A stretch of DNA of 31,309 bases from Acidimicrobiia bacterium (GTDB lineage: Bacteria > Actinomycetota > Acidimicrobiia > Spongiisociales > ZC4RG35), in assembly GCA_036446715.1 (NCBI GenBank), contig JAZFTN010000196.1, positions 1 to 31,309 on the forward strand, given 5' to 3'. The notes below the pieces were generated by a model. It did no database searches. It saw nothing but the letters and a program-made list of their open reading frames with translations, and was not told where the DNA came from. The position numbers and the translations under genes are program-made. Shown here piece by piece: positions 8,626-9,864 of the stretch; the first letter of the stretch is position 1; every line of letters starts with the position of its first letter.

Positions 8626-9864
8626 TTATTGGAGGATCGAACTCCAGGTGCCGGAAGGAGCGACGAGGGCGTTCATGATGGTGTTGTTCCACTGGCCCCG
8701 CGGATAGCGCTCGTTCAGTCCGAACCAGTAGGCAAACTCGTCGCGTGTTTTGTCGAGGCGAGGCTCGTAGTGGCTATCGACCCATTCGAGGAGACCTTCG
8801 AAACGGCTATCGTCTCCGACCTCGCGAGCCAGCCACGTTCCTCGACATGTCGAGGGAATGTCTTCGAAGTCGGTCTCCGGTGTGAGACCGACGTGTATCC
8901 CGTTTGGGCCTTCGATCAGAAACCGGTCTATGAACTCGTTCCAGACCTCATGGGCAGTGTCGGGGTCAAAGGGCAGCAGATACTGGACCATCAGCGTCCA
9001 AGGCGCAGCAACGTGTGGGGCGTGGTCGATCATCAAGCCGATGTCGCGGTACATGAGGATTCGATCGACTCGATCATCGACACGCACCACAGCATCCGGA
9101 AGAAAAGACTGGTACCACTCGGCGAACACTGGCCATGAGTCCGATCCGTAGACCTTGTCGTGGAGTCTCAGACCGAGACCCGTCTCAGCCAGTCACAGAG
9201 GCCAAAGCTTGTGGATCTCACAACACAGACCTTGGGGTCGTCCTTCGAGAGCAGACGAGAAGTCCTCGGTCACGATCGTGTTGATCTCGCTGTGGCTGTA
9301 CCGAAACCTCAACTCGTCGTCGTAGACGATGTCGATCGGCTGGGTCGGGTCCCGCTGTGGATCAAGGAGCGCCCGTAGGCCCAGCACGAAGTTGAAGAAC
9401 CCCTTGTAGTAGATGGCACCCTGGGCATCGATTGGGTTCGACTCGAACCCAACCCCCTGCGCTCCGTTGGATGCCCATCCCGGAGTGTCGTACGACCCCC
9501 ACACCTCGCCAGGAATCAGCAGGCCCCGCCATCCTCTCGGATAGTCTGCCCGCTGCGGATCGGGGCCCTTCTGCTCTACCCACTCATTGAAACCGTGGTA
9601 CAGGCGGAGACGGTCACAAGCACCGTCCAGGGCGTCCACGCCACCGACCAGGTCGAGAGTTCCAGAACGGGTCGCCAGGACAACGGTTATCGCCATTCCG
9701 ATGGCGTCGAACCGATACCAGTTGTTGGTCGGCACCCCCGACATGTTGTCCCAAGCGGCAGCGGGAACACCCGAACTCGACCAATCATCGTCATCAAGAG
9801 CAAGTTTCCGCTCCAGATAGCGGATCCAACCCCTTCCCCGTTCCTCCAATGACGGCAGGCCCAT
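8626..9864 (-). CDS. Linalool dehydratase/isomerase-family protein, 412 aa, with in-frame TGA at 9195-9193 (putative selenocysteine, residue 224)
   Basis: The two track ORFs share a frame and are joined by 21 sense codons. NPIDAQGAIYYKGFFNFVLGLRAL resembles LDI [53 protein letters not shown] resembles LDI [31 protein letters not shown] (LDI sequence recalled from memory). Confidence 0.8.
9163..9181 (-). promoter_or_regulatory. Putative bacterial SECIS element
   Basis: mRNA reads UGA-CUGGCUGAGAC (11 nt)-GGGUCUC-GGUCU-GAGACUC: a 7-bp stem (one G-U) with a GGUCU loop. Confidence 0.7.

Follow-up and report, generated by a model that had tools for sequence, protein, structure and literature searches.

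A hairpin downstream of a UGA codon in an Ldi-like gene

Two described systems come closest to the locus considered here, one on the side of the RNA and one on the side of the protein. In the fdhF gene of E. coli MG1655 (formate dehydrogenase H), UGA-140 is followed, after 11 nt, by GGUUGCA-GGUC-UGCACC, the upper stem-loop of a selenocysteine insertion sequence (SECIS); the minimal fdhF SECIS is made up of the 11-nt spacing, a GGUC loop in which G and U are exposed, and a bulged U in the upper stem, which E. coli SelB needs. On the protein side, the linalool dehydratase/isomerase of Castellaniella defragrans (Ldi, or LinD; PF18566; Protein Data Bank [PDB]: 5G1U, 5HSS, and 7AD2) represents the fold family; it has Cys at both positions of its Cys171...Cys180 pair and hence no SECIS. 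Here, we analyze a hairpin on the minus strand (9181..9163) of a 31,309-nt stretch of DNA from an Acidimicrobiia bacterium (GenBank: GCA_036446715.1, contig JAZFTN010000196.1, positions 1 to 31,309; the whole stretch is called the window below), which lies just downstream of an in-frame UGA (9195..9193) in a gene of the Ldi family. We put at roughly 85% the probability that this hairpin is a bacterial SECIS that causes the UGA to be read as selenocysteine (Sec) in an Ldi-like enzyme.

Direct reading of the minus strand shows the UGA, codon 224 of the gene and the predicted Sec codon (9193..9195), to be followed by an 11-nt spacer, CUGGCUGAGAC (9182..9192), by the 5' arm of the stem, GGGUCUC (9175..9181; the last base of a Thr codon, a Gly codon, and a Leu codon), by the apical loop, GGUCU (9170..9174; Gly GGU and the first two bases of Leu CUG), and by the 3' arm, GAGACUC (9163..9169; the last base of the Leu CUG, Arg AGA, and Leu CUC). 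The first-pass annotation, which had pointed out a SECIS-like hairpin 11 nt past the UGA, was thus right in both letters and coordinates. The stem has seven pairs, one of them G-U, the loop begins 18 nt after the UGA (11 nt of spacer and 7 nt of stem), and the whole hairpin lies within the codons of the peptide T-G-L-G-L-R-L.

The likeness to fdhF claimed in the same annotation, in spacing and in the GGUC loop, is borne out by the MG1655 record: the two elements share the 11-nt spacer, the 18-nt distance from UGA to loop, the location in coding sequence after the UGA, a similar size of the upper stem-loop, and the loop letters GGUCU, written in Gly-Leu codons GGU CUG. Unlike that of fdhF, the Ldi-like stem is a perfect 7-bp helix with no bulged U. 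An extended lower helix that is conserved was not found, and the element belongs to another host protein and another phylum. The constraints of the bacterial SECIS model (bSECISearch), as given in the legend to Figure 2 of a recent review, are a loop of 3–9 nt with at least one G in its first two positions (in most cases G and then G or U), an upper stem of 4–16 bp, a UGA-to-loop distance of 16–37 nt, and a folding energy of at most −7.5 kcal/mol (PMC13188914). The Ldi-like hairpin falls within all of these limits, with its 5-nt loop beginning with GG, its 7-bp stem (6 bp of which are constant among homologues), its 18-nt distance, and its −9.6 kcal/mol. In design, then, the hairpin is ordinary, indeed canonical, and very probably a genuine SECIS.

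The host gene (8626..9864, minus strand) has 412 codons, including the one in-frame TGA, and ends in TAA; its read-through product, 412 residues long, belongs to the Ldi family (PF18566, Pfam E = 1.2e-10). On a plain reading of open reading frames (ORFs), a 223-codon ORF (9864..9196, minus strand) is stopped by the TGA at 9195..9193, and a second ORF in the same frame continues beyond it on the same strand up to the TAA at 8628..8626. The UGA column holds Cys in 13 of 13 full-length database homologues (...K-x-W-P-x-C-L...). A search of the PDB with the single sequence gave no match, and Ldi was reached by the family profile only, which finds the solved Ldi structures with E = 4e-16 over ∼220 residues. 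In the profile alignment, U224 falls on Cys180 and C215 on Cys171 of C. defragrans Ldi (the two are nine residues apart), identity between that protein and the window protein being low. In Ldi, this Cys pair (numbered 170/179) aids acid/base catalysis, and replacement by Ala or Ser abolishes activity (PMC6600392).

Could the TGA be a true stop, in a pseudogene, a split gene, or a sequence with an error, with the hairpin being irrelevant or a remnant? Gene callers do split the gene, the four closest database proteins (59–73% identity) end exactly at the UGA (...KLWPL), and one TGA homologue (L023) carries an additional 3-nt deletion nearby. The DNA of those same four homologues, however, has TGA at the same codon and continues in frame past it with 50–75% identity, and the same TGA is present in 23 sequences from independent samples at 33–75% protein identity. 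Moreover, the downstream half of the Ldi-like gene is in frame and conserved, with no further stops or frameshifts, and we consider a true stop extremely improbable. A general reassignment of TGA is excluded, because TGA is the commonest terminator in this genome and ends 285 of 478 long ORFs. If the hairpin is a SECIS, it is evidence that joins two fragments annotated as hypothetical into one selenoprotein, in a family in which the four closest public proteins stop at the UGA.

The hairpin in TGA- and Cys-encoding homologues

Scans of metagenome and genome collections yielded 20 short-type loci that span the site, from independent metagenomes and one Gaiellaceae metagenome-assembled genome (MAG); the codon is TGA in 19 of these and TGC in one (L020). 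A more distant, long-type group (33–38% identity), assembled from 400 genomes of the same class and a further search at the family level, contains four genes with TGA at the same column (from three genomic genera or families) and relatives with TGC, so that TGA stands at this codon in 23 homologues in total. The clade of the window protein (∼412 residues) lacks a C-terminal domain of ∼150 residues that is present in the long-type proteins (500–580 residues; L040–L050), many of which also have a Cys-rich stretch (CC or CxxC) at their very C terminus.

Across all 23 TGA homologues, the spacer is 11 nt long and the UGA-to-loop distance of 18 nt is invariant. The sequence of the spacer is variable (Ala-Glu has become Gly-Leu in one clade), and constancy in length but not in sequence would fit a role in setting the distance between the ribosomal A site and the hairpin. 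The loop is GGUCU in 21 of the 23 and GGGUU or GGGCU in the other two, with GG kept throughout. The four long-type TGA genes read GGC CUC GGU CUG AGG CUC and thereby form the same hairpin, here of six pairs.

Among the 13 distinct short-type sequences, 96.7% of the stem cells are paired, and two pairs covary through changes that are synonymous on both sides. Pair 4, formed by the third bases of a Gly and the Arg codon, is U-A in 7 rows and C-G in 5 (GGU/AGA versus GGC/AGG), and pair 1 is G-C in 10 rows and C-G in 1 (ACG/CUC versus ACC/CUG); on the tree, the two states of pair 4 require at least two double changes. The observed covariation score was reached by none of 500 shuffles, sliding the partner strand by 1–3 columns lowers pairing to 18–59%, and RNAalifold returns the SECIS helix unprompted. 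RNAalifold also proposes a tentative lower helix (9159..9197, minus strand) in which UGUG at 9197..9194, including the UG of the UGA, pairs with CACG at 9162..9159. All of its bases are fixed by conserved codons, and the long-type TGA clade, which has Phe or Tyr ahead of the UGA, does not retain it; we gave it no weight as evidence.

The comparison of TGA with Cys genes points in the same direction. At least six contiguous pairs are found in 21 of the 23 TGA genes versus 1 of 19 Cys genes. One Cys gene (L040) encodes the identical GLGLRL peptide as GGU CUC GGA CUC CGG CUC, and in another, from Mycobacterium (L049), the same peptide is written GGU CUC GGU CUG CGG UUG; with CGG as the Arg codon, or CUC as the Leu codon that closes the loop, the top of the stem is lost. 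The remaining Cys genes have Gln or Lys instead of Arg. The clade that is sister to the long-type TGA genes has Cys and no hairpin, and nine Cys homologues from farther off in the phylum show nothing like it. The covariation check proposed in the first-pass annotation therefore gives a hairpin that is kept, with two covarying pairs, in the TGA homologues and lost in the Cys homologues save L020; it is neither equally present in Cys-encoding genes nor absent from TGA-containing ones, the two outcomes named there as speaking against a SECIS. Structure is maintained by compensation in the TGA forms and not in the Cys forms.

These data also bear on the idea that the hairpin is an inherited by-product of the GLGLRL peptide and of codon habits, with Sec insertion, if any, depending on some other signal. 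All stem and loop bases do lie in codons of a peptide that is found family-wide, Cys members included, four of the seven pairs are invariant, constraint on synonymous sites is modest, the folding z-scores are null (see below), and one Cys homologue, L020, has the same hairpin. Because the hairpin is written entirely inside the T-G-L-G-L-R-L codons, we chose a null model in which the TGLGLRL peptide is fixed and codons are sampled according to the usage of this genome; the full set of seven pairs then arises in 1.6% of samples, and an unbroken run of six or more, counted from the loop, in 3.9%. Given the peptide, the main need for a stem is that Arg be AGA or AGG and that the two Leu codons closing the loop be CUC...CUG. 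AGA and AGG (AGR) make up ∼20% of Arg codons genome-wide, versus 22 of 22 at the hairpin Arg of TGA homologues, that is, all those that keep the codon, which L023 has lost through its 3-nt deletion. By way of background, the assembly has 60% G+C, and 124 of its hairpins carry a GGUCN loop closed by 6 bp or more.

Further against a by-product stand the Cys genes L040 and L049, which have the same peptide without the hairpin, and the two pairs that have changed on both sides synonymously where the neighboring Gly and Ser codons are saturated (30/36 and 28/36). The hairpin is, in addition, found in two TGA clades that are not sisters (approximately unbiased [AU] test, p = 0.005), and unrelated selenoprotein genes of this genome have the same design on different peptides. 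On balance, a by-product is unlikely, if still the strongest of the competing explanations. The first-pass annotation had regarded the hairpin as evidence independent of the protein alignment; this is correct for the synonymous positions and the choice of AGR, and incorrect for the rest of the element, which is built from the conserved GLGLRL. Lying inside this conserved peptide, the hairpin is carried by synonymous positions and by the use of AGR for Arg.

Selenocysteine machinery and other selenoproteins of the genome

The assembly is a 1.85-Mb MAG, 54% complete, from which 26 tRNAs were recovered. Above the respective cut-offs, it encodes SelA (436 bits), SelB (251 bits, with a C-terminal SelB-wing_3 domain at 66 bits), and SelD (384 bits), the last itself with Sec at the classical site, G-S-G-U-A-C-K. 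One contig (C99:1-1610) breaks off within selB, of which it holds the 5' end directly behind selA, and the remainder of selB lies on a second contig (C155:7-1599); the selAB operon is thus split by the assembly, and no selC is found upstream of selA in the assembled part.

Two further selenoprotein genes of this genome have a hairpin of the same design. The first (C25:4257-4817, minus strand; L051:458-1018) encodes an AhpD-like, peroxidase-related protein (TIGR01926, 134 bits) with a CxxU motif, C-H-Y-U, and its UGA is followed by 11 nt and UCGGCGU-GGUCU-ACGCCGG, with a 7-bp stem. The second, at a contig end (C113:4397-5311, minus strand; L052:398-1312), belongs to the GrdB/PrdB family, with a UxxC motif, U-P-V-C, and has 10 nt between the UGA and AUGUGUC-GGUCG-GACACAU, again with a 7-bp stem. 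Both families are in the published selenoprotein catalogue with exactly these motifs (PMC13188914). Comparison with further selenoprotein genes of this genome, another check suggested at first pass, hence turns out in favor of the SECIS, the design being the same in two of them (a spacer of 10–11 nt, a 7-bp stem, and a GGUC(U/G) loop). Their stem sequences and peptides are unrelated to those of the Ldi-like gene, and all three hairpins are presumably read by the same SelB.

When the whole assembly was scanned for a GGUCN pentaloop on at least 6 bp, with a TGA 15–21 nt ahead of the loop and 80 or more open codons to either side, exactly three sites were returned, namely those in the AhpD-like, GrdB/PrdB-like, and Ldi-like genes. 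A looser scan, for UGA followed by any hairpin, gave 143 candidates that are mostly spurious in this GC-rich genome.

A hairpin might also be functional without SelB, by pausing the ribosome, by promoting near-cognate read-through of the UGA (e.g., by Trp-tRNA), or by controlling translation of the downstream half. Structures downstream of stop codons can stimulate read-through in other systems, tRNA-Sec was not found in the assembly, and the bulged U of the E. coli element is absent. Against such a role, the UGA column is the catalytic Cys in every homologue that lacks TGA, which is a signature of Sec and not of Trp; SelA, SelB with its RNA-binding wing domain, and the Sec-containing SelD are all present; and loop and spacing are as in fdhF and in the two catalogued selenoprotein families of the genome. 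We judge a function independent of SelB to be very unlikely.

Counter-evidence, decoding, and history of the element

A number of observations weigh against the hairpin being a SECIS, and they concern its folding, its conservation, and its relation to known SECIS systems. In ViennaRNA, z = 0.10 and 0.17 for fragments of 61 and 41 nt, that is, a signal from the single sequence is absent. The minimum free energy (MFE) structure of the 41-nt fragment is a competing hairpin, GGCUGAGA/UCUCGGUC, at −10.1 kcal/mol versus −9.6 kcal/mol for the SECIS hairpin. The RNA-folding check called for in the first-pass annotation therefore gives a divided answer: the hairpin forms, at −9.6 kcal/mol, but it is not the MFE structure and its z is ∼0.1.

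Conservation has its exceptions as well. The Cys gene L020 (L020:1875-1910, Ga0214472_10063990; 73% identity) has TGC and retains the hairpin letter for letter; on the tree it is nested inside a TGA clade, beside L038, and it looks like a recent Sec-to-Cys change that carries a "fossil" SECIS. In the TGA gene L021, GGA...AGA creates an A.A mismatch and UUC gives a G-U pair, which weakens the stem, and in the TGA gene L023 (2169-2230, Ga0214471_10063955), the 3-nt deletion changes GLGLRLHD to GLGLIYD and disrupts the 3' arm; L023 may be a gene in decay, the result of an assembly error, or a gene with a different signal. The L003 group and the long-type genes have a mismatch at pair 1, which reduces the constant stem to 6 bp. 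At synonymous sites, the seven hairpin codons are only modestly less variable than the gene as a whole (0.36 versus 0.48; rank 32 of 156 windows of the gene). Much of the variation within the hairpin codons is that of the compensated pair, and synonymous sites in this region are near saturation, because, of 36 sequence pairs, 30 show a difference at the nearby Gly codon (+16) and 28 at the nearby Ser codon (+19). Finally, the tree needs only three Sec/Cys changes, and of the three independent contrasts, the hairpin tracks TGA in two and is unchanged in one; because there are only three such pairs, a contrast test cannot reach significance.

As to known systems, the Ldi-like stem is continuous and without the bulged U that E. 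coli SelB needs. No match to Rfam SECIS_2 (RF01988; gathering threshold 70 bits) was found in the window at E values up to 10, nor was there an Rfam SECIS match for the other SECIS regions of the genome; as a positive control, E. coli fdhF scores 87.1 bits with RF01988. The best RF01988 match in the genome (C62, 23 bits) is a false positive inside an SDR dehydrogenase gene without UGA. The Ldi-like hairpin would work like the fdhF SECIS but is not a member of Rfam SECIS_2.

The selD gene of the same genome, in turn, has a hairpin of a different style, without a GGUC loop (C42; L010:1531-1565): an 8-bp stem with a CCC loop and with the UGA inside a lower helix, at −20.8 kcal/mol and z = −2.0. 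It is stable and, like the Ldi-like hairpin, lies directly past a Sec UGA in coding sequence, and it is otherwise differently built, so that one SelB apparently serves two hairpin styles in this genome. A tRNA-Sec gene was found neither by ARAGORN in the whole assembly nor by Rfam beside selA and selB, a result that is uninformative at 54% completeness. The only match to RF01852 (tRNA-Sec) above the gathering threshold (53 bits) is a tRNA-Ser(UGA). It should be noted that four tRNA-Ser genes are clustered on a small contig (C96:97-1828; L011) and that the tRNA-Ser(UGA) among them could be mis-annotated as selC.

The folding result changes when the first 11 nt are removed: the SECIS hairpin then becomes the MFE structure (−9.4 kcal/mol), as it does in the homologues tested from base +12 on. 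This can be placed in a model of decoding, in which, with the UGA in the A site, the 11-nt spacer would be within the mRNA channel and the stem of 6–7 bp with its GGUCU loop would stand at the mRNA entrance; the competing upstream hairpin could not form as long as the spacer occupies the channel. SelB, with GTP and Sec-tRNA(Sec), would bind the apical loop via its C-terminal winged-helix domain and, competing with release factor 2, bring the Sec-tRNA to the UGA; the product would be a protein of 412 residues in which Sec takes the place of the second catalytic Cys of Ldi. Binding by SelB, occlusion of the spacer by the ribosome, and Sec insertion itself are the steps that we infer.

The alternative hairpin, CUGAGA-CGGG-UCUCGG (9173..9188, minus strand), is present in the window sequence, where ViennaRNA extends it to 8 bp, and it spans bases 3–22 after the UGA. 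The first-pass annotation had proposed that it might tune read-through. Among the 13 homologues, only 60.3% of its cells pair, there is not one compensatory change, and the hairpin is destroyed where Glu-Thr has become Leu-Thr; being unconserved and without covariation, it was rejected as a functional element. Its region would probably lie inside the ribosome or at its mouth during decoding.

If the hairpin is indeed a SECIS, Sec replaces an acid/base or nucleophilic Cys in a hydratase/isomerase-type fold and not a Cys of a classical redox motif. Neither PF18566 nor the word "dehydratase" appears in the table of 119 prokaryotic selenoprotein families in the 2026 review (PMC13188914) or in the text of two recent selenoprotein resources, and no open paper was found that pairs "linalool dehydratase" with "selenocysteine." The host family is thus the newer part of the finding, the SECIS itself being of a known type. 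A Gaiellales-like actinobacterium with the fdhF spacing and loop in three genes and another hairpin in selD should also help to define recognition by SelB and to improve SECIS predictors.

The two TGA clades, short-type and long-type, are not sisters, the best tree that joins them being 26.7 log-likelihood units worse (AU test, p = 0.005); the grouping put to this test was named after the tree had been seen, and long branches are involved. One history that would account for the same hairpin in two non-sister clades is that the GLGL(R)L peptide was pre-adapted to become a SECIS, with Sec and hairpin arising twice in the course of repeated switching between Cys and Sec. We put this forward tentatively and think it rather doubtful; were it true, AGR for Arg and two or three synonymous choices would be enough to fold GLGL(R)L into an fdhF-like hairpin 11 nt past a catalytic Cys codon. 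It is also possible that Sec and the hairpin are ancestral to much of the family, with several replacements by Cys and decay of the hairpin. The residue at +9 is Arg in every TGA form that keeps the codon, and Arg, Gln, or Lys in Cys forms, a pattern in the aligned sequences that suggests that, under either history, the RNA element constrains the protein sequence at this position.

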